Below are positions 22,350 to 43,068 of a DNA stretch of 64,000 nucleotides, piece after piece; the first letter of the stretch is position 1; each line of letters starts with the position of its first letter. Made by a program: the position numbers and the translations under genes. The stretch spans positions 53,637-117,636 of the forward strand of contig JAWCKR010000001.1 in the NCBI GenBank assembly GCA_038851755.1, read 5' to 3'. The notes beneath the pieces were generated by a model. It did no database searches and had not been told where the DNA came from. It was given only the letters and a program-made list of their open reading frames with translations. This DNA is from Candidatus Hadarchaeales archaeon. Its GTDB lineage: Archaea > Hadarchaeota > Hadarchaeia > Hadarchaeales > WYZ-LMO6.

Positions 22350-23366
22350 ATGGAGGTGCTGGAGGAGGGAAGGGGGAAGCTGCTGGGATGGTGCGACCCA
22401 GAAGAGCACAGGGAATGGGTGAGGAAGAATAAGAGCAGGGAAATGGTGGAGAAGGTCACCACCCTGCAAGAGGCCGTCGCCCGCTTCGTGAAGAACGGGT
22501 GCCTGGTGGCCTTCGGGGGCTTCGGCCATGTGAGGGTCCCCATGGCCTTCATCTACGAGATGATCAGGCAGGGGAAGAGGGGCCTGAAGGTGGCCGGGAA
22601 AACTGCCGTGCACGACCTCGACTGCCTGATCGCGGCGGGCTGCGTGGCGGAGGTGGAGGTGGCCTACTCCTTCGGGCACGAGCTCAGGGGGCTCTCCCCC
22701 GCCTCCAGGAGGGCGGTGGAGGGGGGGAAGGTGAAGGTGGTGGCGGAGCTGAGCAACGCGGCCTACCAGTGGAGGTTCAGAGCGGCCGCCGCCGGCCTGC
22801 CCTTCATGCCCGCCTACGTGATGCTGGGGACCGACACCCTCAGGAGGAGCTCCGCGAAGGTGGTGAGGGACCCCTTCACCAAGAGGCCGATCTGCCTCGT
22901 CCCCGCCTGCTTCCCTGACGTGGCGGTGATCCACGTGCACGAGTGCGACGCCTACGGGAACTGCAGAATAGAGGGGGCGCTGGTGGAGGATTTCGAGCTG
23001 GCGAGGGCGGCCAAGAGGCTGGTGGTGACCACGGAGAGGATCATCCCCAACGAGAGGATAAGGAAGGAGCCCTGGAGGACCGTCATTCCCTACCTCTGCG
23101 TGGACGCCGTGGTGGAGGTGCCCTACGGCTCCCATCCCTGCAACATGCCTGGCATGTACTACTTCGACGAGGAGCACCTGGCGGAGTACCTCTCCTTCAC
23201 CCGGACAGAGGAAGGCACGGCGGAGTACTTCAGGAAGTACGTGTACGGGGTGAAGGACTTCCCGCAGTACCTGGAGAGGGTGGGGGGGAAGAGGAAGCTG
23301 AGGTTGCTGGAGAGGCTGGAGAGGGGAAGGGGAACCTACTCCTACCCGTGGAGGGAGAAGGGATGA
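22350..23366 (+). CDS. Family-I CoA-transferase subunit A (glutaconate/3-oxoacid CoA-transferase-like)
   Basis: 338 aa; ...NGCLVAFGGFGHVRVPMAF... typical alpha subunit. Followed by the beta subunit with an ATGA overlap. Confidence 0.8.
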   Translation: MEVLEEGRGKLLGWCDPEEHREWVRKNKSREMVEKVTTLQEAVARFVKNGCLVAFGGFGHVRVPMAFIYEMIRQGKRGLKVAGKTAVHDLDCLIAAGCVAEVEVAYSFGHELRGLSPASRRAVEGGKVKVVAELSNAAYQWRFRAAAAGLPFMPAYVMLGTDTLRRSSAKVVRDPFTKRPICLVPACFPDVAVIHVHECDAYGNCRIEGALVEDFELARAAKRLVVTTERIIPNERIRKEPWRTVIPYLCVDAVVEVPYGSHPCNMPGMYYFDEEHLAEYLSFTRTEEGTAEYFRKYVYGVKDFPQYLERVGGKRKLRLLERLERGRGTYSYPWREKG

Positions 23367-24121
23367 AGTACAGCAGGACGGAGATGATGGTGGTGGCCGC
23401 CTCCCGCCTGCTGGAGGACGGGAAAACCGTTCTCACCGGGACGGGAATGCCCGTGCTGGCTGCCCTCCTGGCCAGGGCCACCAGGGCTCCCGGGCTCTCC
23501 ATCATCTTCGAAGCCGGAGGGGTGGCCCCACTGCAACCCCCCACCCTCCCCCTCTCGGTGGGAGACTCCATGACCGTGCACAGGGCGGTGATGGCCGCCA
23601 GTATGGACTACGTCATGTCGCTGGCGCAGGCGGGATACGCCGACTACGCCTTCCTGGGGGCTGCACAGATAGACCCCTACGGCAACCTCAACACGACGGT
23701 GATAGGCCCCTACGAGCATCCGAGGGTCAGGCTCCCGGGAAGCGGAGGGGCCAACGACTTCGGTTCTCTGTGCTGGAGGACCATCGTGCTGATGAAGCAG
23801 GAAAGGAACAGGTTCGTGGAGAAGCTGGACTTCCTCACCACCCCGGGCTACCTCACGGGAAAGGGTGCCAGGGAGAGGGCGGGGCTTCCCAGGAACACGG
23901 GGCCCTGGCGGGTGGTCACGCAGCTTGGAGTGTACGGGTTCGGGGAAGACCTGAGGCTCAGGCTCCTGCGGGTCTATCCTGGAGTGACGCTGGAAGAGGT
24001 GAGGAACTCCAGCGGCTTCGAGGTGGTGAGGGGAAGGGTGGAGGAAGAACCCGAACCCACCGCGAAGGAACTCAAAGCCCTGAGAAAGCTCGATCCCTAC
24101 GGGATAGTGGTGGGAAAGTGA
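23363..24121 (+). CDS. Family-I CoA-transferase subunit B
   Basis: MKYSRTEMMVVAASRLLEDGKTVLTGTGMPVLAA...LPGSGGANDFGS (beta-subunit motif). ATG at 23363 overlaps the subunit-A stop. The track ORF from 22943 is over-extended. Confidence 0.8.
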   Translation: MKYSRTEMMVVAASRLLEDGKTVLTGTGMPVLAALLARATRAPGLSIIFEAGGVAPLQPPTLPLSVGDSMTVHRAVMAASMDYVMSLAQAGYADYAFLGAAQIDPYGNLNTTVIGPYEHPRVRLPGSGGANDFGSLCWRTIVLMKQERNRFVEKLDFLTTPGYLTGKGARERAGLPRNTGPWRVVTQLGVYGFGEDLRLRLLRVYPGVTLEEVRNSSGFEVVRGRVEEEPEPTAKELKALRKLDPYGIVVGK

Positions 24122-24122
24122 A

Positions 24123-25553
24123 CTAGGTGCCCCTCTCCGACTCCGAGGGGAGGAGGACGTCGTGGGGCCTGGTCTCCTGGGCCCCCAGGGGAGAGAGAAC
24201 GGCGAACCTGGCCTTCTCCCAGAGGTCCCTGATGCTCCTAGCCCCCGCGTACCCCATGGAGGCCCTCAGGCCCAGCACCAGCTCCTTCACGGCCGTGCTC
24301 ACCTCACCCTTGTAGGGCACCCACCCCTCCACGCCCTCCGCTATCCCCTTGGAAGGAACGGAGTACCTGTCCAGCGAGTACCTCTTGGCCATGGCCGAGG
24401 GACTCCCCATCCCCCTGTACTGCTTGTAGTACCTTCCCCCTATGCTCACCAGCGTCCCTGGGGCCTCCTTGCACCTGGCGAAGAGGTTCCCCGCCATGAC
24501 CACGGAGGCCCCGGCAGCCAGCGCCAGCGCTATGTCTCCCGGGCCCCTGACCCCCCCGTCGGCCATCACCGGGAGCTCCAGCCCGTAGTCCCTCAGGGCG
24601 TCGGCCACGCTTGCGGTGGCGTAGAGGGTGGGGGATCCCGCCTTCGTGACCTCGGTGGTCACGCATATCGAGCCGGAGCCCACCCCCGCCCTGAAACCGG
24701 CCACACCCTCCAGCTTGGTGATCACGTCCTCCGCGGCCTGGTAGGTCCCCACGTTCCCCACCACCAGGTCCGCCTCCACCTCCTCCAGCATCCTCTTGGT
24801 GGCCTCCAGCACGGCTGAGTTGTGGAAGTGGGCCACGTCCGTCACCAGCACGTTGACGTACCTGTCCAGCTTCTTCGCCCTCTCCAGGTCGAAGGGGGAG
24901 ACCGCGGCCGCGCACAGGAGCTGTCCCTCCTCGTCCCTGGCCGCCTCCGGGTACTTTCCCCTGAGCATGATGTCCCTGAAGGTGATGAGCCCCCTGAGGT
25001 TCCCGTTCTCGTCCACGATGGGGAGCTTCTCGATCTTGTGCTGGTGGAGAAGGTCCTTCGCCTCCTCCAGGCTTATCCCTTCCCTGGCCGTCACCACCTC
25101 CTTCGTCATCACGCTTTCCACCCTGAACTCGGGGTTGGCGAAGCGCACGTCCCTGCCCGTCAGGATGCCCACCAGCTTCCCACCCTTCACCACCGGAAGA
25201 CCCGAGATGTGGTGGGCCTCCATGAGCTTCATGGCCTCGCCCACCGTCTGGTCAGGGGCCACGGTCACCACCTCCCTTATCACCAGGGACTCCGCCCGCT
25301 TCACCTTCTTGGCCATCTCCACCTGCTCCTCCACGCTGCAGTTGCGGTGGAGGACGCCCACCCCTCCCTCCCTCGCCATCGCTATCGCCATCTCGGTCTC
25401 CGTGACGGTGTCCATCGGGGAGGAGACAAGGGGAATGTTCAGGGAATAGTTCTTGGTGAACCTGGTCCTCACGTCGATCTCGGAGGGCTCGACCGCCAGC
25501 CCGGGGAGCAGGATGAGGTCGTGGAAGGTGAGGGCCAGTTCAGCCCCCGTCAC
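24123..25553 (-). CDS. guaB: Inosine-5'-monophosphate dehydrogenase with CBS pair
   Basis: ...ALTFHDLILLPG...; tandem CBS domains; catalytic loop GVGSGSICVTTEVTKAGSP; ...GGVRGPGDIALALAAGA... GTG at 25553 is preceded by AGGAGGaaa. The track ORF to 25835 is a Gly-rich over-extension overlapping the upstream gene. Confidence 0.9.
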   Translation of the reverse strand: MTGAELALTFHDLILLPGLAVEPSEIDVRTRFTKNYSLNIPLVSSPMDTVTETEMAIAMAREGGVGVLHRNCSVEEQVEMAKKVKRAESLVIREVVTVAPDQTVGEAMKLMEAHHISGLPVVKGGKLVGILTGRDVRFANPEFRVESVMTKEVVTAREGISLEEAKDLLHQHKIEKLPIVDENGNLRGLITFRDIMLRGKYPEAARDEEGQLLCAAAVSPFDLERAKKLDRYVNVLVTDVAHFHNSAVLEATKRMLEEVEADLVVGNVGTYQAAEDVITKLEGVAGFRAGVGSGSICVTTEVTKAGSPTLYATASVADALRDYGLELPVMADGGVRGPGDIALALAAGASVVMAGNLFARCKEAPGTLVSIGGRYYKQYRGMGSPSAMAKRYSLDRYSVPSKGIAEGVEGWVPYKGEVSTAVKELVLGLRASMGYAGARSIRDLWEKARFAVLSPLGAQETRPHDVLLPSESERGT

Positions 25554-25618
25554 TTTCCTCCTGAAGCCTCCCTCCGGCACTCTTCCACCTTCTATCAAGG
25601 AAAGGGGGGAGTTTAACC

Positions 25619-26128
25619 CTATCGGGAGACGGGGGGTCCTCCCTCGAACTCCCTCAGCAGTCTCTCCACTTCGCCCCTCACCTTCTCCACCTCCACCACC
25701 ACCACTCCCTCTCCCGGCTGCCCGTACAGGACCACGGTGCCCGGAGGGGACTTCGCCACGGCCGCGAGCGTGGCCAGGTCCTCCTCCCCCTCCACCACTA
25801 TCTTCAGGGGAGGGGGGAGGTCGAAGGTCTCCCACAGCTCCCTGGAGAGGGTGGCCGGTGGATTCACCACCCTCCTCTCGGGAAAATCCAGCTCCTCCAC
25901 CCTCCTCCTCTCCTCTCCAGACAGGGGGGAGCGGAGGGTCTTGAAGTCCACCACGCAGACATCGGGCCTCACCCCCTCTCCCAGGAGGGTGGCGGTGACC
26001 ATGTCCCCCACCGTCACTATCCTTCTCGGTCGGAGGGTTCTCACGTGCCTCAGGGCCTCCCCCATGCTTGGGAAGACCCTGCCCAGCGGCCTCTTGAGCC
26101 TGTCCCTGAGGTGCTCCGGAAGCCTCAT
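25619..26128 (-). CDS. DUF359/COG1909 protein, probable GTP-dependent dephospho-CoA kinase
   Basis: 169 aa; MRLPEHLRDRLKRPLGRVFP...IVTVGDMVTATLL...VVDFKT... matches the small DUF359 family assigned as archaeal DPCK. ATGA overlap with the DGGGP synthase stop. Confidence 0.55.
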   Translation of the reverse strand: MRLPEHLRDRLKRPLGRVFPSMGEALRHVRTLRPRRIVTVGDMVTATLLGEGVRPDVCVVDFKTLRSPLSGEERRRVEELDFPERRVVNPPATLSRELWETFDLPPPLKIVVEGEEDLATLAAVAKSPPGTVVLYGQPGEGVVVVEVEKVRGEVERLLREFEGGPPVSR

Positions 26129-26994
26129 CCCAACCTCCCCAGCAGGAAGGCCAGCAGGCCGAAGAGCATCCAGAGGAGGGAGAGGCGCTTGAGCTCCGCT
26201 GCCTTACTGGCCGAGGGCTTCCTCAGGGAGAGGAAACCCGTGGAGAGGAAGCCCGCGTCCGCCAGCACCACGGGAGGAAGGTACCAGGGGGAGACCTCAC
26301 CCAGCAGAAGGGGGAGGGGGCTCAGCGCCACGGCCGAGAGGTAGAAGAGGAGGACGAAGGAAGCCGCACCCTTCTGGCCTCTGGAGACCGCGAGCGTCCT
26401 GATCCCCCTTCTCCTGTCCCCCTCCACATCCGCCATCCCCTTCAAAATCTCTCTCCCCGTGTTGGAAAGGAAAGCCATGAGCAGGAAGAAGGAGAGGGTA
26501 AGGGTGGGTTCTTCGCCCACCACCAGGGGACCGTAGAGGAAAGGTATGGCCACGCAGGTGCTCACCATCAGGTTGCCGGGCAGCCCCGTCCTCTTCCCCC
26601 TCGCGTTGTAGTAGGTGGAAAGAAGGAAGGAGAGAACGGCGACGAGCAGGGGATAGAGGGTCCCCCTCTCCACCCAGCTCCCGGCCGCGGAGAGAAGGCC
26701 GAGCGCCGCCAGCCAGGAAGCGAAGAGGAGGGCCTCTCCCGTCGAAACGAGGCCGCTTGGGATGGGCCGGCCAGGCTGGTTCACCTCGTCCACGAAGCGG
26801 TCGAAGTAATCGTTCACCGTCATGGAGGCCCCTGTGAGGAAGAAAGCCGTGGAGAAACCGAGAAGGCTCGGGAGGAACTCCAGCCTGCCCACGGCCAGGA
26901 TCTCCCCCACCAGGACGGCGAGCCCCATCATGAGGCAGTTGGGAAGCCTGAGAAGGGAGAGAAAAGCCCGGAGCCTGCGCAGGGGGGTCTTCAT
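26125..26994 (-). CDS. Digeranylgeranylglyceryl phosphate synthase (UbiA prenyltransferase family)
   Basis: Multi-TM protein with NDYFDRFVDEVNQPGRPIPSG (UbiA Asp-rich motif 1) and a second D-rich region. ATG (MKTPLRRLRAF) at 26994; the track start at TTG 27021. Confidence 0.85.
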   Translation of the reverse strand: MKTPLRRLRAFLSLLRLPNCLMMGLAVLVGEILAVGRLEFLPSLLGFSTAFFLTGASMTVNDYFDRFVDEVNQPGRPIPSGLVSTGEALLFASWLAALGLLSAAGSWVERGTLYPLLVAVLSFLLSTYYNARGKRTGLPGNLMVSTCVAIPFLYGPLVVGEEPTLTLSFFLLMAFLSNTGREILKGMADVEGDRRRGIRTLAVSRGQKGAASFVLLFYLSAVALSPLPLLLGEVSPWYLPPVVLADAGFLSTGFLSLRKPSASKAAELKRLSLLWMLFGLLAFLLGRLG

Positions 26995-27096
26995 GACTTT
27001 CAAGGGGGATGAACCCTCCAAGTTTTAACCCTACCGAAATCCCCTCCGAAAAAGCTCACCCTATAATAACCCTACGCGCCAAAAACACCGAAGGAC

Positions 27097-28689
27097 ATGG
27101 AGCTCAAGAAAACCACCTCACTCTGCCCGGAGTGCCTCAGTATTCTCCAGGCGACCCTTTACGAGAAAGATGGCAAGGTCTGGATGAAGAAGGTCTGCCC
27201 GGAGCACGGGGAGTTCGAGGAGGTTTACAGCGGGTCCTCCGAGTGGTACAGGAGGGCCGAACGGTACGCGATGGACGGAAGGGGGGTGGAGAACCCGCAG
27301 GTGACCAAGAAGGATCCCTCCTGCCCTCAAGACTGCGGCCTGTGCAGCCTCCACCTGAGCCATACGGCGCTTGCAAACATCGTGCTGACGAACAGGTGCG
27401 ATCTGACGTGCTGGTATTGCTTTTTTTTCGCCCAGCGACTCGGCTACGTCTACGAGCCCACCCTCAAGCAAATTGAGGAGATGCTCAAGGTCCTCAAGAG
27501 CGAGAAACCCATCGCGTGCAACGCGGTGCAACTGACGGGTGGGGAGCCCTGCCTGAGGGAGGATCTCCTCGAGATCATAAGGCTGATCAAATCTTACGAC
27601 TTCGACCACATCCAGCTCAACACCAACGGGATAAGGCTGGCGCAGGAACCGGAACTCGCGTCGAAGGTCCGCGAGGCCGGGGTGAACACCCTCTACCTCA
27701 GTTTCGATGGGGTGAGCGAGAAAACGAACCCCAAAAACCACTGGGAGTTCCCCCTGGCCCTGGAGAACTGCCGGAAAGCGGGACTGGGGATAGTGCTCGT
27801 ACCCACCGTCATCAAGGGAGTGAACGACCATGAGATCGGGGACATCGTGAAGTACGCCTTCAGGAACCTCGACATCGTCAGAAGCGTGAACTTCCAGCCG
27901 GTTTCCCTCGTGGGGAGGATGCCCCGCGAGGAGAGGGACCGGTACAGGATAACCATCCCCGACGTCATCAAGAAACTGGAGGAGCAGACCAACGGGGAGG
28001 TAACCCTGCAGGACTTTTTCCCCGTGCCCACGGCCCTCGTGATAAGCAGGTTCATCGAGGGGCTCACGGGCAGACCGAGCTACGACCTCAGCTCCCACTT
28101 CGCGTGCGGAGCGGCGACCTACGTGTTCAGGGAGAACGGAAGGATGATCCCGATCACCAGGTTCATAGACGTGGAGGGCTTCCTGGAGTACATGAGGGAG
28201 AAGACGGAGGAGCTGAAGAGGGGAAAGAGCAGGACCCTCATGAAACTGAAGCTCCTCGCCTCCATAGGGAAGTTCATAGACTCGAGGAAGAAGCCCAGGG
28301 ACCTCAAGCTGGGCAGGCTCATCTATCAGATTTTCGTGAGACGGAACTACGGCGCCCTCGGCCAGTTCCACATGAAGTCCCTCTTCATAGGGATGATGCA
28401 CTTCATGGACCTCTACAACTACGACGTGGAGAGGGTGAAGAGGTGCTGCATCCACTACGTGATGAGCGACAACAGGGTGGTTCCCTTCTGCGCCTTCAAC
28501 GTCATCCCCGAGTGGTACAGGGACAAGGACCAGGAGAGCCAGGGAGTCCCCATAGAGGAGTGGGAGAGGAGGACCGGGAAGAAGCTCAGGGACGACCTCT
28601 ACAAGCGCGACGTGGAAAGGCTCAAGCGGACGGACGCTTACCGTAAGTTCGAGCAGGATCTGAAGGAGATAAAGTCAGGCCTTTACTAG
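27097..28689 (+). CDS. Radical-SAM protein, probable tetraether lipid synthase (Tes / GDGT-MAS-like)
   Basis: 530 aa; N-terminal Cys/His knuckles (CPECLS...CPEHG, rubredoxin-like); radical-SAM CX3CX2C (NRCDLTCWYC); long C-terminal domain with further Cys (CCIHY...C). Sits between DGGGP synthase and GGR/GGGPS/G1PDH. TATA-like ctATAATAAc centred ~31 nt upstream of the ATG. Confidence 0.6.
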   Translation: MELKKTTSLCPECLSILQATLYEKDGKVWMKKVCPEHGEFEEVYSGSSEWYRRAERYAMDGRGVENPQVTKKDPSCPQDCGLCSLHLSHTALANIVLTNRCDLTCWYCFFFAQRLGYVYEPTLKQIEEMLKVLKSEKPIACNAVQLTGGEPCLREDLLEIIRLIKSYDFDHIQLNTNGIRLAQEPELASKVREAGVNTLYLSFDGVSEKTNPKNHWEFPLALENCRKAGLGIVLVPTVIKGVNDHEIGDIVKYAFRNLDIVRSVNFQPVSLVGRMPREERDRYRITIPDVIKKLEEQTNGEVTLQDFFPVPTALVISRFIEGLTGRPSYDLSSHFACGAATYVFRENGRMIPITRFIDVEGFLEYMREKTEELKRGKSRTLMKLKLLASIGKFIDSRKKPRDLKLGRLIYQIFVRRNYGALGQFHMKSLFIGMMHFMDLYNYDVERVKRCCIHYVMSDNRVVPFCAFNVIPEWYRDKDQESQGVPIEEWERRTGKKLRDDLYKRDVERLKRTDAYRKFEQDLKEIKSGLY

Positions 28690-28746
28690 CTCGGCGAGCG
28701 ATGCGCAACGCTTCCCTTATAAGTCCACCGGAAAAGTTAGCTGAAG

Positions 28747-29916
28747 ATGTCAGAGCAACAGGAGTACGACGTGATCGTGGTGGGTGCAGGGCCCGCGGGC
28801 CTGATGGCTTCCAGGAAGGCCGCTGAGGCCGGGGCCAGCACCCTCCTGCTGGAGAGGGAGAACTCCCTGGGGAAAAAGCCCTGCGGGGAGGCTGTGTCCG
28901 TGTCCACGCTCGAGGACGCCGGAGTGAAGGGAGGGAGGTTCATCCGCAACCGCGTGGAGATCTTCAGGGTGCACGCCCCTGACGAGCGGAAGTACGTGGA
29001 CATCCTCTCCCGCAAGCTGGGAACGGCGGGATACGTGATAGAGAAGGGACTCTTCCTGAAAGAGCTGGCCTACCTGGCCGTCAAGAGGGGAGTGGAGATG
29101 AGGATGGGTTCGCCCGTGCTGGACCTGAGGAGGGTGGAGGGGTGGTGGGAGGTCCTAGTCAAGCAGGGGGCGGAGAGGAGGAAGTTCAGGGGAAAGATAG
29201 TGATAGGATGCGACGGGGTGAACTCGGTGGTGGCCGGGAAGGCCCTGCGGGTGAAAAAGCCCGAGGTCATCCCCTGCTTCCAGTACAAGATGGTGAACTG
29301 CGGGGTAGAGGACCCGCACACGCTGGAGGTCTACCTGGGGAAGGAGGTGGCCCCCGGGGGCTACGTGTGGCTCTTCCCGAAGGACGGGGGGGAAGCCAAC
29401 GTGGGGATAGGGGTGAGGGGGGCGCCGGCCAAGCCCTACCTAGACCGCTTCCTCTCCTCCCATCCCGAGCTCTTCGGCGGGGCCGGCGTGGTGGAGGTGG
29501 GCGCTGCACCCGTGCCGGTGGGGGGGGAAGTCGAGAGGGTGGTGGGGGAGGGGGTGATGGTGTGCGGGGATGCGGGCGGGCAGGTGATACCCCTCACGGG
29601 GGGAGGAATCCACTCCTCCGTGGTCGCGGGGAAGATGGCGGGAGAGGTGGCGGGAGAGGCCGTGAAGGGGGGCAGGGAACTGCAGGAATACCCCCGGAGA
29701 TACGAGGAGTGGAGCGAAAGGATCTCCCGGAGCCTGAAGGTGCTCAGGCTCATAGAGAAGCTGAGCGACAAGGAGCTGAACCAGCTGGCCGACCTCCTCA
29801 CCGGCCAGGACGTGGTGGACCTGGCCAACGGGACCAACCTGAAAAGGGTGGGGAGGAAGCTCCTGCGGCATCCTCACTTCGCCCTCCGCCTGGCGAGGGG
29901 GCTGCTGGGTGGTTGA
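28747..29916 (+). CDS. Geranylgeranyl reductase (digeranylgeranylglycerophospholipid reductase), FAD-dependent
   Basis: YDVIVVGAGPAGLMASRKAAEAGASTLLLER...KPCGEAVS... (FAD Rossmann + conserved Cys); 389 aa typical GGR. Confidence 0.9.
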   Translation: MSEQQEYDVIVVGAGPAGLMASRKAAEAGASTLLLERENSLGKKPCGEAVSVSTLEDAGVKGGRFIRNRVEIFRVHAPDERKYVDILSRKLGTAGYVIEKGLFLKELAYLAVKRGVEMRMGSPVLDLRRVEGWWEVLVKQGAERRKFRGKIVIGCDGVNSVVAGKALRVKKPEVIPCFQYKMVNCGVEDPHTLEVYLGKEVAPGGYVWLFPKDGGEANVGIGVRGAPAKPYLDRFLSSHPELFGGAGVVEVGAAPVPVGGEVERVVGEGVMVCGDAGGQVIPLTGGGIHSSVVAGKMAGEVAGEAVKGGRELQEYPRRYEEWSERISRSLKVLRLIEKLSDKELNQLADLLTGQDVVDLANGTNLKRVGRKLLRHPHFALRLARGLLGG

Positions 29917-30676
29917 GCTGGGCAGGGTGGAGAAGTACCTGAGGGAGGGGATGCGAAAGCATCCGCTGCACCTCACGCTGGTGGACCCCGAGAAGACCCG
30001 CGGGGACAAAGCGGGGGAACTCTGCAGGAGGGCGGAGAAAGCGGGGACCTCGGCCATCATGGTCGGGGGCTCCACCGTGTGCTCCACCACCCTCGTGGAC
30101 GAAACGGTGAAGGCCATCAAGAAGGAGGTGGAGCTCCCCGTCATCCTTTTTCCCAACAACCTCTCCGGCATCAGCAGGTACGCCGACGCCATCTTCTTCA
30201 TGTCCCTCCTCAACTCCTCCAACCCCTACTTCCTCATCGACGCGCAGGCCCTGGGGGCTCCCCTCGTGAGGGAGTACGGCCTGGAGGTCCTCCCCATGGG
30301 CTACCTCATCCTGGGACCGGGGGGAACGGCGGGCTTCGTGGGGCAGGCGAGGTTCCTCCCGCTGGAAAAGGCGGAGCTGGCGGCAGCCTACGCTCTAGCC
30401 GCCCAGTACCTGGGGATGCACTTCGTCTACCTGGAAGCGGGCTCGGGGGCCCCCACGCCCGTTCCACCCCAGACCATCTCCGCCGTCCGGAAGTGCGTGG
30501 ACCTCCCCCTCATCGTGGGAGGGGGAATAAGGACGGGAGAGGAGGCCAGGAGGGCGGCGCAGGCCGGGGCGGACCTGGTGGTGACGGGAACGGTGGTGGA
30601 GGAGGGAAGGGTGGAGGAGAAGATAGGGGAAATGGTGGAGGCCCTCCGAAAGGTGCGCCGGGGTAAGGAGCGTTGA
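29909..30676 (+). CDS. Geranylgeranylglyceryl phosphate synthase (PcrB family)
   Basis: ...HLTLVDPEKT...AIMVGGS...YLEAGSGAP...LIVGGGIRTGEEA is a TIM-barrel GGGPS. GTG start overlaps the GGR stop (GTGGTTGA). Confidence 0.9.
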   Translation: MVELGRVEKYLREGMRKHPLHLTLVDPEKTRGDKAGELCRRAEKAGTSAIMVGGSTVCSTTLVDETVKAIKKEVELPVILFPNNLSGISRYADAIFFMSLLNSSNPYFLIDAQALGAPLVREYGLEVLPMGYLILGPGGTAGFVGQARFLPLEKAELAAAYALAAQYLGMHFVYLEAGSGAPTPVPPQTISAVRKCVDLPLIVGGGIRTGEEARRAAQAGADLVVTGTVVEEGRVEEKIGEMVEALRKVRRGKER

Positions 30677-31713
30677 GGGACATCCACACCATCGACCTCC
30701 CCACCAGAGTGGTGGTGGGGAGAAAGGTGATCGAGAAGGTGGGGGAGACCTGCAGGGAGCTGGGCTTGAGGGGGAGGGTCCTGGTGCTCTCTGGTCCCCA
30801 CACCCAAACCAGGGCCGGAAGGAGGGTGATCACCTCACTGGAGGAAGAGGGCTTCGAGCCCAACCTCCTCAGGGTGGAGGGGGAACCCCTGGAGGAGGTG
30901 GAGGAGGAGATCCGGAGGACCAGGCCCTCCTTCCTGGTGGGGGTGGGGGGAGGGAGGGTGATAGACCTGGCCAAGTACTCCTCCTCGAGGGCCCGTCTTC
31001 CCTTCCTCAGCGTCCCCACCGCCGCCTCCCACGACGGCATCGCCAGCTCCAGGGCCTCCCTGCGCAGGCTGGGACCCCTCTCCGTGGACGCACGCACCCC
31101 CCTCGCCATCCTGGCCGACGTGGAGGTGATCTCCCGTTCCCCCCACCGCCTCACGGCGAGCGGGTGCGGTGACCTGATGGCCAAGTTCACCGCCGTGAGG
31201 GACTGGAGGCTCTCCCACCTCCTCACGGGGGAGTACTACGGGGACTACTCCGCACAGCTGGCCCTGATGAGCGCGGAGGTGACGGCGCGCAACTCCAAGC
31301 TGATAGGGGAGGGAAAGGAGGAAGGGGTGAGGGTGGTGGTGGAGGCCCTCATCAGCTGCGGGGTGGCCATGTGCATCGCCGGCAGCTCCAGGCCCTGCAG
31401 CGGCTCGGAGCACTCCTTCGCCCACGCGCTCGAGGAGGTCTCCCCCAACCCCTCCCTGCACGGGGAGAGGTGCGGGGTGGGCACCATCCTCATGGCCTAC
31501 CTCCACGGGATGAACTGGAAGAGGGTGCGCAGGGTCCTCTCGGAGGTGGGAGCACCCACCACGGCGGAGGAGCTGGGAGTGGAGGGGGAGGCGGTGGTGG
31601 AGGCCATGCTCAGGGCCAGGGAAATCAGGCCCGAGAGGTTCACCATCCTGAACAGGAAAAAGCTGAACAAGGAGATGGCGAGGAGGATAGCGGAAAAAAC
31701 GGGAGTGGTCTAG
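30673..31713 (+). CDS. egsA: Glycerol-1-phosphate dehydrogenase [NAD(P)+]
   Basis: 346 aa of the DHQS/glycerol-DH superfamily: ...VLSGPHT..., ...VGVGGGRVIDLAKY..., ...SHDGIAS..., metal ligands H..H. TTG start overlaps the GGGPS stop (TTGA). Confidence 0.88.
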   Translation: MRDIHTIDLPTRVVVGRKVIEKVGETCRELGLRGRVLVLSGPHTQTRAGRRVITSLEEEGFEPNLLRVEGEPLEEVEEEIRRTRPSFLVGVGGGRVIDLAKYSSSRARLPFLSVPTAASHDGIASSRASLRRLGPLSVDARTPLAILADVEVISRSPHRLTASGCGDLMAKFTAVRDWRLSHLLTGEYYGDYSAQLALMSAEVTARNSKLIGEGKEEGVRVVVEALISCGVAMCIAGSSRPCSGSEHSFAHALEEVSPNPSLHGERCGVGTILMAYLHGMNWKRVRRVLSEVGAPTTAEELGVEGEAVVEAMLRAREIRPERFTILNRKKLNKEMARRIAEKTGVV

Positions 31714-32804
31714 GAGGGAAAGCCCGTCTCGGAGAGGAGCTCCCGGGAAGAGTTCCCGAAGACCTCCTTTCTCATCTCCTCGAGCAGGAGGTCAAGGTTC
31801 CTCCCCTCCTTCGCGGAGATGGGGAGGACGGGAAGGGGGAGCCTGCCCAGCACCTCCATCTTCTCCCCCAGCTCCTGAGGGGAGAGGAGGTCCACCTTGT
31901 TGAGGGCCACCAGGATCCTCAGTCCCCTCTCCGAGAGGATCTCCAGACTCACCTTGAGCTTCCTGAGGATCTCCGACATGGGGTCGCTTCCGTCCACCAC
32001 CAGGACCACCAGGTCCGCGGAGTAAATCTCCTCGAGGGCCGCCTTGAAGGCCTCCACCATCCAGGGGGGCAGTCCCTCGATGAAGCCCACGGAGTCCGTC
32101 ATCAGGACCCTCTCGCAGCCCTTCACGGCCCTCGTCCTGACCGTCAGGGTGGTGAACATCCTGTCGTCCACCTCCACATCGGAGCGGGTGAGGGCGTTCA
32201 GGAGGGTGGACTTGCCGGCGTTGGTGTACCCCGCCAGAGCCACCAGCCTGAAACCCCTCCTCCTGCGCTGACCCCTCCTCTTCTCCCTCGACTCCGCCAG
32301 GGCCCTGAGCTTCTTCCTAAGGATGGCCATCCTCCTCTTCACCATGTCCAGGTACATGTTGAGCTCGTACTCACCCCTCCCCCGGAACCCTGGCTGCTCG
32401 ACCGAGAGGAGGTTCCTTATCCTCTCCCTCAGCCTGGGGAATTCGTAGCTGAGCCTGGCGTACTCCACCTGCAGCTTCGCCTCCGGTGATCCGGCCCTGC
32501 GGGCGAAGATCTCCAGGATGAGCTGAAACCTGTCCATCACCTCCACCCCCAGGGCCCTGTTCAGGTTGAAGAGCTGCGAGGGGGTGAGCTGGTTGGCGAA
32601 GATCACGAGCTCCGCCCCCTTCAGCCTCACGAGCTCGGCCACCTCCCCCACCTTCCCCCTTCCTATCTGGAAGGCCGGATCGGCCTCCCTCACCTGCACC
32701 ACCTTCCCCACCACCTCGTGCCCCATGGTCTCGGCCAGCTCCTGCAGCTCCCCCAGCTCGTCCCTTCCGCCCGGCTGCACCCTCTGCACGAGAACGGTAC
32801 GCAT
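31710..32804 (-). CDS. hflX: GTPase HflX
   Basis: N-terminal HflX domain plus G-domain: GYTNAGKSTLLNALT (G1), DSVGF (G3), NKVD (G4); 364 aa. Confidence 0.9.
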   Translation of the reverse strand: MRTVLVQRVQPGGRDELGELQELAETMGHEVVGKVVQVREADPAFQIGRGKVGEVAELVRLKGAELVIFANQLTPSQLFNLNRALGVEVMDRFQLILEIFARRAGSPEAKLQVEYARLSYEFPRLRERIRNLLSVEQPGFRGRGEYELNMYLDMVKRRMAILRKKLRALAESREKRRGQRRRRGFRLVALAGYTNAGKSTLLNALTRSDVEVDDRMFTTLTVRTRAVKGCERVLMTDSVGFIEGLPPWMVEAFKAALEEIYSADLVVLVVDGSDPMSEILRKLKVSLEILSERGLRILVALNKVDLLSPQELGEKMEVLGRLPLPVLPISAKEGRNLDLLLEEMRKEVFGNSSRELLSETGFPS

Positions 32805-32879
32805 CTCAGTAACTGGGTTTCCTGGAGTTTAATCCTGCCCCTCGGCGTCCCTATAAAGTGTACCTCCCAAGGGGGGAAG

Positions 32880-34649
32880 ATGCGGAGGCATGCGCACGCA
32901 GACCCCGGAGGGAAGAGGAAACGCGCCTCTCTCCTCATGGCCGCGCTGACGATGTCCCCCCTCATCCTTTCCCTCTCCCTCCCGCCAGCCGGTGCCCTCC
33001 GCCTCTCCCCCTCCTACACCTCGGTGGTGGTGGAGTTCCAGATCCTGGAGGACAGGACGGTAAGGGTGGGAGAGAACTGCGTCCTCAACCTCCCAAGTTT
33101 CTATTCTTCTATCACCATCAAGCGCACCCTTCCCTCCGAGAACGTGCAGGAGCTGGAGGCCTGGTGCGAACCTGGGGAGCTGAGGCTGGAGAACCGAACC
33201 GTGGAGGAGGGGACCGAGGTGACCCTCACCATCTCGTTCAGCTCTCCCTTCCGGGGGGAGCTGAGGTACGGGCTCTCCTACAGGGCGGCGGGATGGGTGG
33301 GCGGGGCTGGGCCCAAGTACGAGGCGGTGCTCGGGGGGGTGAGGATAGGGGCTGGAGGCTACCCCTACGAGAGCTACCGGATCACCATCAGGGGACCTCC
33401 CGGAAGCAAACTCTTCTGGCACGAGCCCAGGGATGCCGTTCCCTCGGCCGATGGCCTCTCCGTCACCTACTCCACCTCCGTGGGGGCACCAGGAAGCTTC
33501 GGAGGGATGCTCGCCACCTTCTACACCACGCCCGTCTACTACAAGCTCACCCTCACGGAGAGCCTGGGGAACTCCGGTGGGAGCAGCTGCGACCTGGTGA
33601 TGAACCTCCTCCTCTTCAGCGAGGGGAAGGCGCATTTCGCCTCGCTGGTTACCTCCGACCCTTCGCCCGGCAGCCTCTACGCGGACGAGGAGAACAACTT
33701 CTACGCCTCCTTCAGGCTGAAGCTGGCGCCAGGTGAGAACAAACGGGTAAAGGTGGAACTGGTGTGGAAGGTGGAGCTGTACGATCCGGGGATTTCCTCC
33801 GAGAACTCAGGTACCCTCGACGACCTGCCCCAGGGCATGGAGGAGTACACGGTGGAAAGGAAGTGGTGGGAGGTGGAGGAGCTGCGCCCCCTCTCCCTCC
33901 AGCTCACGGGAGGGGAGAGGAACCTCTACCTCCTCTGCCGCGAGCTTCTCCGGTGGATGGACGGCGCCATCGCCTACGTGCCCACCCAGGAGAGGCAGGG
34001 GGCCCTGGAGACCTACCGAAGGGGAGCGGGGGACTGCGACTGCCTGAGCGACCTCCTCATCGCCCTGCTCCGGTCCCTGGGCGTGCCCTCCCGCCTCTCC
34101 TTCGGCTGGACCGCGGAGGAAAACGGGGCTGGGAACCACGCCTGGGTGGAGGTCCATCTCCCGGGATGGGGGTGGCAACCGGTGGACCCCACCTGGTCGA
34201 AGGGCTCCGAGAAGTACCTCTTCAGGATGGACCCCCTCCACCTCTGCAGGGGCTCCAGGGGGCTGACCTCCTCCGACTCCTACCTCTCCAGGGCCTACTA
34301 CGGGGGCTACCCGGAGGTGGGGCTCGAGGAAGTCTCCCTCGTCCTCCTCTCGGAGGAGGAGGCCCTGCAGGAGTTCCTCCTCTCCGCCCGCACCCTTCTG
34401 TGCCTGGCGGAGGAGGGGGGGGAGGACCCCAGGCTGGAGGTGGCCCGGGAGAGCCTCCGGAGAGCCGAGAACGGCGGGGGAATGGAAGAAGCCCTTCGAT
34501 CCCTCTCCCTTTCCCTCTCGGTGCTGAGGGAAAGGGGGAAACCGCTCGAACTCCCCCGCAGGGTTCCCACCTGGGCTCTGGCGCTACTGGCGGGAAGTGC
34601 GGCGGCGCTGGCGTTGGCGCTGGGGCTGGGCCTGAGGAGGAGAGCCTGA
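32880..34649 (+). CDS. Secreted, C-terminally membrane-anchored transglutaminase-like (papain-fold Cys-His-Asp) protein
   Basis: N-terminal signal-like [22 protein letters not shown]; core [29 protein letters not shown]...[22 protein letters not shown] (TGase-like C/H/D); C-terminal TM helix [24 protein letters not shown] 32880 (alternative 32937); TATA-like ctATAAAg at 32861-68. Confidence 0.75.
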
Positions 34650-36008
34650 CCCGACCCTGGGCAACTCCTTCAGGGCCTTCTCCACCAGCTCCCTCGGGTA
34701 CTCGTAGTCCTCCAGCTTCCCCTGCAGGTAGGCGTCCCACGCCCCCAAATCGAGCATGCCATGCCCGCTGCAGTTGAAGAGGATCACCTTTTCCTCCCCC
34801 GTGCGCTTGCACCTCAGGGCCTCGTCCACCACCGCCCTTATCGCGTGGGCCGTCTCGGGGGCGACCACGAAGCCCTCCGCCCTGGCGAAGAGGTTGGCCG
34901 CCTCGAACACCTCGTTCTGGTGGTAGGCCAGGGCACCCACGTAACCCTCCTTGGTGAGCTTGCAGAGGAGGGGGGCGTCACCGTGGTACCTGAGACCACC
35001 CGCGTGGATGGGCGGGGGAACGAAGGTGTGCCCGAGGGTGTACATCTTCAGGAGAGGTGTGAGCCCGGCCGAGTCACCGTGGTCGTAGGTGTAAATCCCC
35101 TTGGTGAGGGTGGGACAGGCTTTGGGCTCGCAGGAGAAGGCCTGCAGCTCGGGCTTTTTCCCCGTGAGCTTGTCCATCAGGAAGGGGAAGAGGAGACCCG
35201 CGTAGTTGCTCCCCCCTCCCACGCACCCGAGGATCACGTCGGGATACTCCCCCGCCAACTCCATCTGTTTCTTGGCCTCCAGCCCCACCACGGTCTGGTG
35301 CAGGAGAACGTGGTTCAGCACGCTTCCCAGGGAGTACTTGGTGTTCCTGTGGGTGACGGCGTCCTCGATGGCCTCGGAGATGGCTATGCCCAGACTGCCG
35401 GGGTTCTGCGGATCCTCCTCCAGAATCCTCCTGCCGTACTCCGTCCTCTCGCTGGGACTGGGAACGCACTCCGCCCCCCATATCTCCATGAGGATCCTCC
35501 GGTAGGGCTTACCCTCGTAGCTAACCCTGACCATGTACACGGTGCACTCCAGCCCGAAGAGCATGGTGGCGAAGGCCAATGCACTTCCCCACTGTCCCGC
35601 CCCCGTTTCCGTGGTCAGCCTCTCCACGCCCTCCTTCATGTTGTAGTAGGCCTGGGCCACCGAGGTGTTCGGCTTGTGGCTCCCCGCGGGGCTCACCCCC
35701 TCCCACTTGTAGTAAATCCTGGCGGGGGTCTTCAGCATGCGCTCCAGCCTGACCGCCCTGTAGAGGGGGGTGGGCCTCCAGATCCTGTAGACCTCCCTCA
35801 CCTCCTCGGGGATGGGTATCCACCTCTCCTGGCTGACCTCCTGCTTGATCAGCTCCCTGGGGAAGATGGGCTCCAGATCCTGTGGGCCCACGGGCTTCCC
35901 CGTGGCCGGGTTGAGGGGGGGATCCAGAGGGGAGGGAAGGTCCGCCTGGATGTTGTACCAGGCCTTGGGCAGCTCCTCCTCGTCCAGCAGGAACTTCACG
36001 CGCTCCAT
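34584..36008 (-). CDS. trpB2: Tryptophan synthase beta-like protein TrpB2 (stand-alone)
   Basis: [25 protein letters not shown]... (TrpB2-type N-terminal extension); PLP-binding ...SHKPNT... and GGGSNYAG. No trpA neighbour. 66-nt convergent overlap with the preceding gene. Confidence 0.88.
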
Positions 36009-36046: not shown

Positions 36047-36769
36047 TTAAGGCACAAATCTGTTCTTCCCCAGGGAAAGGAGGAACTCACGGGTCTTGGT
36101 CCCCAGACCCAGCGTCTCAGCCCTCAGGAGGTCCTCCACCCCATCCACGTCCGTGGCCACCGTCTCCGACCGGTAAATCTTGGGCCTTATCCCCGCCCTG
36201 AGGCTCTCCCTCACATGGAGGGGGAAGCTCTCCCCTCCGAACCTGAGGGGGATCACGTCGGGCGGGCGCAGGAACAGGGCGTTGGTCCCCCGGGCGTAAG
36301 AGGGGGCGATCACCACCTCCCTCTCGGAGGAAGCCATCCCCACTATCCCCTCCACATCATCCACCCTGAGGAAGGGAAGATCGGCGGGGAGGATCAGGAC
36401 CTCCCTCGCTCCCTCCCTCACCGCCCTCCCCACCGCCAGCGAGAGGGCCAGGTTCAGCTCCAGCCCGGGCTCCCTCAGGACCTCCGCGCCCATCCCGGAG
36501 GCGAGGCGCAGGACCTCCTCGTCCGGTGAGACCACCACCCTCCTCATCCTCACCCTGGAGAGGACCCCCAGCATGTCAGAAAGCATGCACAGGACCAGTT
36601 CCCTCCTCTCCGGGGGAGTGAGGACCCCCTCGAAGGTGGACTTGGCCCTAGAGAGGGGTTTCAGGGGCAGAACCACCCAGCCTTTTCCTTCCTCCACGGT
36701 CTCCATGAACTCACGGAAGAAGACGCTTTTACCCCTTCGGAGGGATACGTGATTTATTACCGGGGGCAT
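36047..36769 (-). CDS. cofC: 2-phospho-L-lactate (or PEP) guanylyltransferase CofC
   Basis: ...[15 protein letters not shown]...; MobA-like NTP-transferase fold; 240 aa. ATG at 36769; a later in-frame ATG (36706, METVEEG...) is also possible and would remove the head-to-head overlap with cofG. Confidence 0.78.
36753..36760 (+). promoter_or_regulatory. TATA-like box (ATTTATTA) ~26 nt upstream of the cofG ATG (leaderless geometry)
   Basis: gtgATTTATTAccgggggcatcgaggaaagggtATG. Box centre to ATG 36782 is ~25.5 nt. Confidence 0.4.
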
Positions 36770-36781
36770 CGAGGAAAGGGT

Positions 36782-37795: not shown

Positions 37796-37820
37796 GAACG
37801 TGGGAACCAGAGGCTCCAAC

Positions 37821-39898: not shown

Positions 39899-39921
39899 CT
39901 CCCCAGCTCCCCCTCCCCCCT

Positions 39922-39939
39922 AAAAAGGGTGGGCTTTTT
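39922..39939. promoter_or_regulatory. Palindromic bidirectional promoter element AAAAAG-GGTGGG-CTTTTT between divergent cofD and the HAD gene
   Basis: Arms AAAAAG/CTTTTT are reverse complements. The minus-strand CTTTTTA centre is ~26 nt from the cofD ATG (39898). The plus-strand CTTTTTTT run is ~32 nt from the HAD ATG (39970). Confidence 0.4.
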
Positions 39940-39969
39940 TTCTTCCCCCTCCAGGTATCGGGGACCTGG

Positions 39970-41325: not shown

Positions 41326-41342
41326 CCTAGCAGTTTCCCACA

Positions 41343-41360
41343 CCGGGATTTTATACCCGG
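41343..41360. promoter_or_regulatory. Palindromic TATA element CCGGG-ATTTTATA-CCCGG shared by the two divergent cofE paralogues
   Basis: 5-bp perfect inverted arms around an 8-bp A/T box. Centre is 26.5 nt from the minus-strand cofE ATG (41325) and ~56 nt from the plus-strand cofE GTG (41408). Confidence 0.45.
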
Positions 41361-41407
41361 CTTAGAACCCGAACACCTTCATAAGGGGGGAGAACCACTT
41401 CTCACCC

Positions 41408-42935: not shown

Positions 42936-43068
42936 TCCATTTCCTTTCACTTTCTTTCCTTTTAAATTATAACACCCTTGCTGTACTATATCCAATCTTG
43001 GAATATCTCTAACTTAAAAATCCTCCACAAAGGTTTATGCCGGACCCTCCCACTTCTCCAGAGGCCCC

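Follow-up and report, generated by a model that had tools for sequence, protein, structure and literature searches.

A Hadarchaeota orthologue of the tetraether lipid synthase Tes and the core lipid genes beside it

Identity of the encoded protein

A radical-SAM protein encoded among genes for archaeal membrane lipid synthesis raises the question of whether it belongs to the enzymes that couple lipid chains into tetraethers, and how its gene came to lie in such company. We addressed this question for an open reading frame at 27097..28689 (+) in a 64,000-nt stretch of Hadarchaeota DNA (hereafter, the window), for which a first-pass annotation had proposed the function of a tetraether lipid synthase (Tes; GDGT/macrocyclic archaeol synthase). 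The frame starts with ATG, specifies a protein of 530 aa and ends with a TAG stop codon at 28687-28689. Its GC3 value is 0.86 vs. 0.52 for the antisense reading frame and it was therefore regarded as coding. A pseudogene or an intein-split gene was rejected as the frame is intact, colinear with PDB entry 7TOL and devoid of an intein. In line with this, the model for intein-containing Tes proteins (NF045703; intein in the radical-SAM domain) gave 662 bits in two pieces vs. a cutoff of 1700.

The NCBIfam equivalog model NF045702, 'tetraether lipid synthase Tes', recognized the protein with 724.8 bits as compared with a cutoff of 450 bits, and this match was full-length, pairing aa 5-482 with positions 1-482 of the 486 profile positions. 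When the protein was aligned with MJ0619 from Methanocaldococcus jannaschii (GDGT-MAS; PDB 7TOL and 7TOM), a colinear match over aa 4-492 was obtained with E=9e-145 and 46.9% identity across 499 columns. Matches with E=4e-218 and 9e-145 place the identity of the protein far above chance. An observation that counts against the assignment is that the identity to MJ0619, the sole biochemically dissected member, amounts to only 47%.

Structure prediction led to the same result. The AlphaFold (AF2) model of the protein (pLDDT 88.1, pTM 0.90) was superimposed by Foldseek on 7TOM and 7TOL with TM scores of 0.86 and 0.92, respectively, over 507-514 columns. The second-best fold was MoaA with TM scores of 0.39-0.40, leaving GDGT-MAS as the sole full-length match. 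Family membership and fold are thereby established. The nearest homologues reside in Hadarchaeota and are 66-86% identical, several of them already carrying the name 'tetraether lipid synthase Tes' at NCBI. These orthologues (e.g. P0013 and P0020, both named Tes, and those of the loci L001, L002 and L019) are equal in length to the window protein. MA_1486 from Methanosarcina acetivorans, Maeo_0574 from Methanococcus aeolicus and Saci_0703 from Sulfolobus acidocaldarius fall into the same NCBIfam equivalog family, their membership being taken from the literature (PMC8941075) and that of the window protein from its score.

For this family, formation of the biphytanyl C-C bond has been demonstrated in vitro together with a structure for MJ0619 (PMC9433317), and Tes function has been shown by heterologous expression of MA_1486 and Maeo_0574 (PMC8941075). 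We conclude with high confidence that the open reading frame encodes the Hadarchaeota orthologue of Tes/GDGT-MAS, a radical-SAM enzyme with four predicted metal sites. It is an enzyme of a conventional, already characterised type and leaves the current picture of Tes unchanged.

Metal sites and proposed chemistry

The four-domain layout of the window protein is the same as that of MJ0619 and consists of a rubredoxin-like domain, an N-terminal auxiliary cluster, the radical-SAM core and a C-terminal cluster domain. Pfam matches were limited to Zn_ribbon_HMPTM and Radical_SAM, together with a weak hit to Fer4_12. Every metal-site residue of MJ0619 that is named in the structural work (PMC9433317) has an aligned counterpart, and conservation was evaluated across 198 homologues. 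The rubredoxin-like zinc-ribbon domain spans aa 3-45 (27103..27231, +; PF23545 Zn_ribbon_HMPTM, 3.3e-20) and contains the pair CPEC (aa 10-13) and CPEH (aa 34-37) that had been noticed at first reading. The predicted Fe ligands C10, C13, C34 and H37 are spaced C10-X2-C13-X20-C34-X2-H37, just as in the rubredoxin-like Fe site of MJ0619, C9X2C12X20C33X2H36 (PMC9433317). C34 is present in 198/198 homologues and H37 in 196/198; for C10 and C13 the figure is 194/198, with gaps in the remaining four.

A second CX3CX2C motif, which the first-pass annotation had not mentioned, would provide the N-terminal auxiliary [4Fe-4S] site (27322..27354, +). It is formed by C76-X3-C80-X2-C83 and followed by H86; these residues align with C73/C77/C80 and the conserved His (H83) of MJ0619, and each of them is invariant among the 198 homologues. 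In the AF2 model, pLDDT fell below 50 for aa 69-76 and averaged 45-65 in the blocks of aa 61-90, which is expected because a cluster-binding loop was modelled free of metal. The radical-SAM core follows at aa 95-253 (27379..27855, +; Pfam PF04055, 1.4e-28). Its CX3CX2C motif lies in the stretch NRCDLTCWYC, as originally pointed out, and consists of C101/C105/C108 (nt 27397-27420), which correspond to C98/C102/C105 of MJ0619 and are likewise invariant. The contacts to SAM and 5'-deoxyadenosine, F109, Q267, S270 and R274, are kept relative to MJ0619. One exception, to be counted against the assignment although Asn is usual in the family, is Arg210 of MJ0619, a further 5'-deoxyadenosine contact carried on a 4-residue loop insertion, which is replaced by Asn211 in the window protein and by Asn in 197/198 homologues.

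The Tes-specific domain with the C-terminal auxiliary cluster and the lipid pocket extends over approximately aa 310-482 (28024..28542, +) and is covered by the Tes HMM. The additional C-terminal cysteines of the earlier reading are indeed found here, in CCIHY (aa 450-454) and at position 465, and a further one that had gone unmentioned, C337, joins them. C337, C450 and C465 are probable ligands of the C-terminal cluster, as judged from their invariance in the 198 homologues. C451 varies, being Cys in 144/198. M434 and Y454, the counterparts of the labile Met439 and of Tyr459 in MJ0619, are also invariant, and Cys438 of MJ0619 is replaced by Met433. The conservation of the published cofactor and SAM-site residues is hence established. 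Beyond this domain, a C-terminal helical tail (aa 493-530) extends the window protein about 38 aa past MJ0619. This tail is common to Hadarchaeota and MSBL1 orthologues; the aligned Hadarchaeota orthologues have it as in the window protein. One orthologue, P0005 of locus L019 (708 aa), contains an intein (PF14890), which is absent from the window copy.

Chemistry, substrates and products can be proposed by analogy with MJ0619, MA_1486 and Maeo_0574. Going by homology to MJ0619, the substrates would be fully saturated archaeal diether phospholipids. They would be supplied by the enzymes encoded next to tes, i.e. G1PDH, GGGPS, DGGGPS and GGR, the latter performing saturation, followed by attachment of the head group. 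The radical-SAM cluster at C101/C105/C108 would cleave SAM reductively, and the resulting 5'-deoxyadenosyl radical would take a hydrogen from one phytanyl chain at its terminal methyl carbon. This first substrate radical would be stored by forming a C-S bond with a sulfide in the C-terminal [4Fe-4S] cluster, with C337/C450/C465 as probable ligands and M434 as the labile one. A second SAM molecule would then generate a radical on the terminus of a second phytanyl chain, whose attack on the sulfur-bound carbon would join the two chains into biphytanyl through a C(sp3)-C(sp3) bond. One coupling inside a single lipid would lead to macrocyclic archaeol, and two couplings between two lipids would first give GTGT and finally GDGT. 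Electrons are probably relayed by the rubredoxin-like Fe site together with the N-terminal cluster. The ratio of GDGT to macrocyclic archaeol in the organism is beyond prediction from sequence.

Related radical-SAM enzymes and other outputs

Instead of being a genuine GDGT-forming enzyme, the protein could be a paralogue within the Tes family whose products are fewer or of another kind, for example only macrocyclic archaeol, only the GTGT intermediate or lipids in which non-standard chains are coupled. Several findings argue against this. The tes gene is single-copy in the window, where a tblastn search for a second paralogue matched only tes itself. The Tes score lies well over the equivalog cutoff, and the cofactor and active-site residues are all canonical. 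Moreover, the protein is 58-63% identical to homologues in the genomes of Nitrososphaerales and Archaeoglobi, both of which are GDGT producers. A precedent for narrow output is nevertheless provided by Methanosarcina acetivorans, whose second homologue, MA_1114, yielded no GDGT and only traces of macrocyclic archaeol, and by certain Halobacteria, which carry Tes homologues without detectable GDGT (PMC8941075). According to Zeng et al., the outcome with MA_1114 may reflect poor expression (PMC8941075). In another report, MJ0619 itself is described as initially favouring the macrocyclic product in vitro, with a GDGT to macrocyclic archaeol ratio of 1:1.65 (10.64898/2026.09.04.749484). We consider such an output improbable for the window protein.

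MJ0619 was originally annotated as a class D radical-SAM methylase acting on C7 and C9 of the pterin in methanopterin biosynthesis, and the Pfam name of the N-terminal domain, Zn_ribbon_HMPTM, still points to such a function. The window also contains an F420 cluster, so C1-cofactor metabolism is present in the organism. However, Lloyd et al. were unable to reproduce methylase activity of MJ0619, observed biphytanyl formation in vitro and described a long hydrophobic lipid tunnel that is unsuited to a pterin substrate (PMC9433317). In addition, the genes next to tes are lipid genes and not pterin genes. The label 'HMPTM' is a historical carry-over of the old MJ0619 annotation. For the Tes family the pterin-methylase reading is effectively refuted, and for the window protein we give it hardly any credence.

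Equally negligible is the probability that the protein belongs to a different radical-SAM family with which it shares its N-terminal half, be it the TrsS (seleno)protein family or a lipid-modifying enzyme such as Grs, Gms or Cds. The TrsS model NF045646 matched aa 5-309 with 354.4 bits, which reveals a common layout in which the zinc ribbon, the motif for the auxiliary cluster and the radical-SAM core are homologous. Yet this score stays below the cutoff of 490 for the 441-position profile, the match does not reach into the C-terminal domain, and the Tes model spans the whole protein at twice the TrsS score. In the fold search, GDGT-MAS alone matched over the full length. TrsS, MoaA, the SPASM maturases and further families of radical-SAM enzymes were all rejected, their matches being far under the Tes model or under their own cutoffs. 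No GDGT-ring synthase, calditol synthase or GMGT synthase model was among the 25 best NCBIfam families listed. A B12-dependent enzyme of the GrsA/B type was discarded since Pfam found no N-terminal cobalamin-binding domain (PF02310). The ring or crosslink synthase that had been kept as a fallback is therefore not needed. The assignment as Tes thus held up where it might have failed, as the best hits were not to non-lipid radical-SAM families and the Tes pattern of cysteines is present.

Core lipid genes adjoining tes and their distribution

All genes of the pathway to saturated diethers, i.e. those for G1PDH, GGGPS, DGGGPS and GGR, adjoin tes (26125-27021, 28747-31713). The pathway context is hence established, and the location of tes between DGGGPS and GGR genes, noted at first reading, was borne out. 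Divergent from tes lies a gene for a UbiA-family, DGGGPS-like prenyltransferase (26125..27021, -; Pfam UbiA, 7.2e-39). Its best PDB match was 6m31, a digeranylgeranylglyceryl phosphate synthase (1.1e-37), and with NCBIfam PRK12884 it reached 256 bits, slightly below the cutoff of 269. Downstream of tes, the gene for geranylgeranyl reductase (28747..29916, +) was identified by TIGR02032 (209 bits, cutoff 158.8), Pfam GGR_cat (5e-22) and PDB 3oz2 (1.4e-54). It is followed by that for GGGPS of the PcrB family (29909..30676, +; NF003198, 333.6 bits, cutoff 247; TIGR01769, 271 bits, cutoff 161.55), the two frames sharing 8 nt at the GGR stop. After another overlap of 4 nt, the gene for glycerol-1-phosphate dehydrogenase follows (G1PDH/EgsA; 30673..31713, +; NF002022, 458 bits, cutoff 413). 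The encoded protein is 100% identical to P0121 from the NCBI entry 'Ca. Hadarchaeales archaeon' GCA_038846705.1. Neither CarS nor head-group enzymes turned up in the 64,000-nt window, and no additional lipid genes were evident in the gene-caller gaps when the first residues of candidate ORFs were read. MA_1486 is located beside ferredoxin and GGR genes (PMC8941075), and the window tes likewise adjoins GGR; unlike the MA_1486 locus, the window has no ferredoxin gene between the two.

As the host is an archaeon, for which sigma-70 promoter and terminator scanning is unsuited, intergenic regions were read directly. The divergent intergenic region of 75 bp contains the TATA-like box TATAATAA (27062..27069, +), which ends 27 nt 5' of the tes ATG. 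L001, L002 and L019 each have an A/T-rich box in the corresponding place of the alignment, some 20-30 nt 5' of the ATG, and we infer that TATAATAA is a putative promoter element of tes. Another TATA-like box, CTTATAAG (28716..28723, +), lies about 25 nt 5' of the GGR ATG. L001 and L002 carry this box unchanged and L019 a similar one; it is a putative promoter element of GGR.

L001, L002 and L019 have their gene neighbourhood in common with the window. Among 80 genome loci, the complete five-gene set occurred only in L001 and L019; on the truncated contig L002, the gene order matches that of the window as far as GGR. A five-gene cluster as a general Hadarchaeota or Tes-linked trait was rejected on the basis of this confinement. 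At the other Hadarchaeota loci examined, which encode Tes proteins of 66-75% identity and include Ca. Hadarchaeum MAGs, flanks of up to 10 kb contain no gene of the four that accompany tes in the window. Because the compact cluster is lineage-specific, genomic context, which the first-pass annotation had regarded as its strongest argument, carries less weight than the protein-level evidence.

In a more distant relative (ERZ25515360 NODE_14), a tes-UbiA unit and a GGR-GGGPS-G1PDH unit are situated about 8.6 kb apart. They are separated by an ApbE/Rnf/rSAM-SPASM block, and tes has the opposite orientation. The idea that tes was merely inserted beside an unrelated trio was refined accordingly, given that both units are already linked in this relative. 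The named matches of G1PDH outside the clade stem from Bathyarchaeia and Hecatellales and do not include other Hadarchaeota, for which reason the GGR-GGGPS-G1PDH trio may derive from horizontal transfer, tes and DGGGPS having joined it later. This scenario appears rather unlikely, as does the reading it belongs to, in which the 5.6-kb DGGGPS/tes/GGR-GGGPS-G1PDH block would be a recently condensed and co-regulated core membrane lipid module of a single Hadarchaeota lineage (the L001/WYZ-LMO6/L019 clade). A limited literature search did not retrieve a published description of the five-gene cluster, which is no proof of novelty.

Judged by its genes, this uncultured Hadarchaeota lineage, a non-methanogen in contrast to the methanogenic host of MJ0619, has the genetic capacity for membrane-spanning GDGT and/or macrocyclic archaeol. 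This is of relevance for attributing environmental GDGT signals in habitats of the lineage. In published surveys, Tes homologues have been reported in nearly all archaeal phyla (24/27 surveyed). The five-gene cluster might serve as a handy cassette for the heterologous rebuilding of tetraether synthesis and as a small case study in the condensation of dispersed archaeal lipid genes. The practical value of the finding is small, and NCBI already names Hadarchaeota orthologues Tes. Other radical-SAM genes in the window (36749-38975) encode CofG and CofH, both scoring over their NCBIfam cutoffs, and the window also carries a cluster for F420 biosynthesis.

Family assignment and active-site residues

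The tes reading frame (27097-28689, + strand) is intact, running from an ATG start to a TAG stop and encoding 530 aa. Its GC3 is 0.86 and that of the long antisense ORF 0.52, in line with the coding signature of the confident comparison genes. The first-pass annotation had proposed a tetraether synthase, and this identity was borne out by profile, BLAST and structural comparisons. The protein scored 724.8 bits against the NCBIfam equivalog NF045702 "tetraether lipid synthase Tes" (curated cutoff 450), aligning end to end (aa 5-482 with profile positions 1-482 of 486). Pfam placed a PF23545 zinc ribbon at the N terminus (aa 3-45, 3.3e-20) and a Radical_SAM core at aa 95-253 (1.4e-28). In a PDB search the sole strong match was GDGT-MAS of Methanocaldococcus jannaschii, MJ0619 (7TOL/7TOM, E=9e-145, aa 4-492), followed by MoaA at 5e-11; BLASTP against the crystallised MJ0619 sequence, rebuilt from the PDB-search alignment, gave 46.9% identity across 499 columns. 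An AlphaFold2 model built from an input alignment of 50 sequences (mean pLDDT 88.1, pTM 0.90) was matched by Foldseek to 7TOM/7TOL over about 510 columns with TM scores of 0.86 (query-normalised) and 0.92 (target-normalised). MoaA was the next fold, at TM 0.39-0.40, which fits a match confined to the radical-SAM core.

MJ0619 has four metal sites (Lloyd et al., PMC9433317). Its rubredoxin-like Fe is bound by C9-X2-C12-X20-C33-X2-H36, its N-terminal [4Fe-4S] cluster by C73/C77/C80 and a conserved His, and besides the radical-SAM cluster there is a C-terminal [4Fe-4S] cluster, where Met439 is labile, with the strictly conserved Tyr459 alongside (PMC9433317). The corresponding residues of the window protein are C10-X2-C13-X20-C34-X2-H37 for the Fe site and C76/C80/C83/H86, C101/C105/C108, M434 and Y454 for the others. 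The motifs noticed at first reading all lie where they were described: the knuckle pair CPEC (aa 10-13) and CPEH (aa 34-37), the radical-SAM CX3CX2C within NRCDLTCWYC (C101/C105/C108), and the additional C-terminal Cys of CCIHY (aa 450-454) together with Cys 465. Overlooked there were the second CX3CX2C, C76/C80/C83 with H86 behind it, and the invariant C337. We aligned 198 homologues (120 database matches, 76 translated genome loci, MJ0619 and the window protein), in which the aligned metal-site residues, M434 and Y454 are invariant wherever the position is covered, except that the H37 position holds His in 196 and Asp in two. The invariant Cys of the C-terminal half are C337, C450 and C465, C451 being variable (144/198), so that the C-terminal cluster is predicted to be bound by C337/C450/C465 and M434. 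The MJ0619 contacts to 5'-dA, Phe106, Gln268, Ser271 and Arg275, are retained as F109, Q267, S270 and R274. MJ0619 differs at Arg210, which lies inside a four-residue loop insertion unique to it in this alignment; Asn is found there in the window protein and in 197 of the 198 homologues. Judged from its sequence, the window protein shows no departure from the family norm.

Among other identities, a Tes-family paralogue of narrower function, like MA_1114 of Methanosarcina acetivorans, is improbable given that tes is single-copy within the window, scores high against the family model and carries the canonical residues. Hardly any credence attaches to the old annotation of MJ0619 as a pterin methylase, a label that persists in the Pfam domain name, since that activity could not be reproduced and is implausible on structural grounds (PMC9433317). 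Scores, including those of the 25 best NCBIfam families, and domain content exclude TrsS (354 bits, cutoff 490, coverage limited to aa 5-309), Grs, Gms and Cds, leaving membership of any of these families only a very small chance; the fallback reading of a ring- or crosslink-type enzyme is not needed.

For Tes, the mechanism can be sketched from MJ0619, which acts on a fully saturated diether phospholipid and uses two SAM per C-C bond (PMC9433317). A first 5'-deoxyadenosyl radical takes H from a terminal phytanyl carbon; the C-terminal cluster then holds the substrate radical in a C-S bond, and with SAM limiting a thiolated lipid was detected. Attack of a second radical on the S-bound carbon gives a biphytanyl chain (PMC9433317). 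Intramolecular coupling yields macrocyclic archaeol and intermolecular coupling GTGT and then GDGT (PMC9433317); a 2026 preprint gives an initial in vitro GDGT:macrocyclic ratio of 1:1.65 for MJ0619 (10.64898/2026.09.04.749484). Because every implicated residue is conserved, the window Tes would very probably join phytanyl ends by the same two-SAM route through a C-S intermediate, with a product ratio that is not predictable from sequence.

Lipid-gene neighbourhood and its distribution

The gene was found, as the first-pass annotation had it, between a DGGGPS-like gene and GGR. Upstream and divergent from tes lies a UbiA-family prenyltransferase gene whose closest solved relative is DGGGPS 6m31 (1.1e-37). 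Downstream, on the + strand, follow GGR (TIGR02032, 209 bits against 158.8; 3oz2, 1.4e-54), GGGPS (333.6 bits, cutoff 247) and G1PDH (30673-31713, 458 bits, cutoff 413), with overlaps of 8 nt (GGR/GGGPS) and 4 nt (GGGPS/G1PDH). This context had been rated the strongest argument for Tes; it does support the assignment, yet the protein-level evidence is stronger. TATA-like boxes at 27062-27069 and 28716-28723, each about 25-30 nt upstream of the ATG of tes and GGR, respectively, are retained in three close relatives. We infer that tes has its own putative promoter and that GGR-GGGPS-G1PDH form a predicted operon.

The best protein matches of Tes are from Hadarchaeota (Hadesarchaea) MAGs (66-85% identity), and NCBI names several of them "tetraether lipid synthase Tes". 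Among reference-genome loci the best is L001, with a Tes of 86% identity; the Tes of a second relative, L019 (2942-5059), is a protein of 708 aa (82%). The latter carries an intein (PF14890) and the window protein does not, its score against the intein-containing Tes model being far under the cutoff; NCBIfam keeps this model separate. A protein with 100% identity to the window G1PDH is present in GCA_038846705.1 ("Candidatus Hadarchaeales archaeon"), where the 3.4-kb contig JAWCOU010000141.1 is broken within GGR, a break that probably accounts for the absence of the window's Tes from the protein collection (best match 85%).

Neighbour genes of the window were searched by tblastn against 80 Tes-encoding genome loci. 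The full arrangement, IMPDH, dephospho-CoA kinase and DGGGPS, then tes, GGR, GGGPS and G1PDH, then HflX, was complete in L001 alone; it runs through G1PDH in L019 and through GGR in a third relative, L002, where the contigs end. At thirteen further Hadarchaeota loci (L004-L017, L021; Tes 66-75% identical), tblastn found none of the four lipid genes in flanks of at most 10 kb, one side being much shorter in some. L003 (Tes 78%) is a 3-kb contig, too short for a neighbourhood call. Ca. Hecatella (L027), where GGR and G1PDH are both divergent from tes, shows a partial association, as does L020, one Aenigmatarchaeota MAG; an earlier example of tes associated with GGR is MA_1484-1486 of M. acetivorans (PMC8941075). 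Context in other Hadarchaeota varies: no lipid genes lie near tes in L088, and L089 (GCA_046761105.1, Hadarchaeaceae) has a different, lipid-associated neighbourhood with a CarS-like CDP-archaeol synthase gene two genes upstream. Genes for a PAP2 phosphatase, an LPG-synthase-like membrane protein, a glycosyltransferase and a B12-binding radical-SAM protein were also seen there, 5-8 kb downstream.

A more distant relative, ENA ERZ25515360 NODE_14 (Tes 64%, G1PDH 66%), keeps the window backbone in two parts, PurC, PurF, IMPDH, dephospho-CoA kinase (DUF359), UbiA and tes on one side and GGR, GGGPS, G1PDH, HflX, the transglutaminase-like and TrpB-like genes and the F420 cluster on the other, parted by an 8.6-kb block of ApbE, an RnfCDGEAB operon and a radical-SAM/SPASM gene. 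Its tes is co-directional with UbiA, whereas the two are divergent in the window (region 24123-31713). The best reading of the window's compact cluster is therefore that an older neighbourhood, more loosely arranged, became condensed in this lineage. The radical-SAM/SPASM protein of NODE_14 (L084:6499-7968, - strand, 489 aa), divergent beside GGR at the position of the window tes, has AhbD/NirJ-like top NCBIfam matches of about 265 bits, well under the cutoffs.

The family, structure, mechanism and Hadarchaeota occurrence of Tes are all already known, and a standard annotation pipeline would call this gene Tes, a finding correct but ordinary. Mild novelty lies solely in the compact cluster of five core-lipid genes and its apparent evolutionary condensation; a limited literature search found no published description of the cluster.

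The matches of G1PDH comprise a close clade (85-100% identity), then a nameless 66% match from the syntenic relative and, at about 60%, named entries from Bathyarchaeia/Bathyarchaeota and Hecatellales; most of the top 120 matches are nameless, and those with a name include no further Hadarchaeota. Tes differs, its next matches (66-75%) being Hadarchaeota. The contrast could reflect horizontal transfer of the GGR-GGGPS-G1PDH trio or merely unequal evolutionary rates.

Remaining genes of the window

Elsewhere the window is made up of housekeeping genes: RNA polymerase and ribosomal-protein operons (assigned by gene order, sizes and N-terminal sequences only), one tRNA-Lys, a purine biosynthesis cluster and histidine biosynthesis genes. 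PurH and IMPDH are separated by two neighbouring genes for CoA-transferase subunits (PF01144; 22350-23366 and ~23363-24121, +). Called from its first GTG, the IMPDH ORF (24123-25835, -) is extended at its N terminus by about 100 aa rich in Gly, Pro and Arg; the Pfam domain starts at aa 101, the NODE_14 orthologue has 489 aa, and translation probably begins at an internal codon. The same probably holds for a transglutaminase-like gene (32718-34649, +, 643 aa), because its first possible start overlaps the HflX start by 87 nt. It adjoins a TrpB-like PLP enzyme gene (34584-36008, -; NF009057, 745 bits), and the pair has the same order in NODE_14.

An apparently complete coenzyme F420 biosynthesis cluster (36047-42175), a block also conserved in NODE_14, contains the window's other radical-SAM genes, CofG (36749-37795, +, 426 bits, cutoff 209) and CofH (37707-38975, +, 451 bits, cutoff 374), together with CofC (36047-36769, -), CofD (38957-39898, -), a HAD hydrolase (39970-40593, +) and divergent CofE/F420-glutamyl-ligase paralogues (40567-41343, -; 41408-42175, +). 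A 278-aa ORF (42159-42995, -) has coding-like GC3 and only weak KaiC/FlaH-like similarity, and a 136-aa ORF (61208-61618, +, GC3 0.95) had no Pfam or NCBIfam match. An RtcB RNA ligase gene (44356-45804, +; PF01139, 3e-178) lies about 17 kb from an RtcA-like RNA 3'-phosphate cyclase ORF (63231-63944, -), which may be truncated or mis-started because, as called, it covers only the C-terminal half of the RTC profile.
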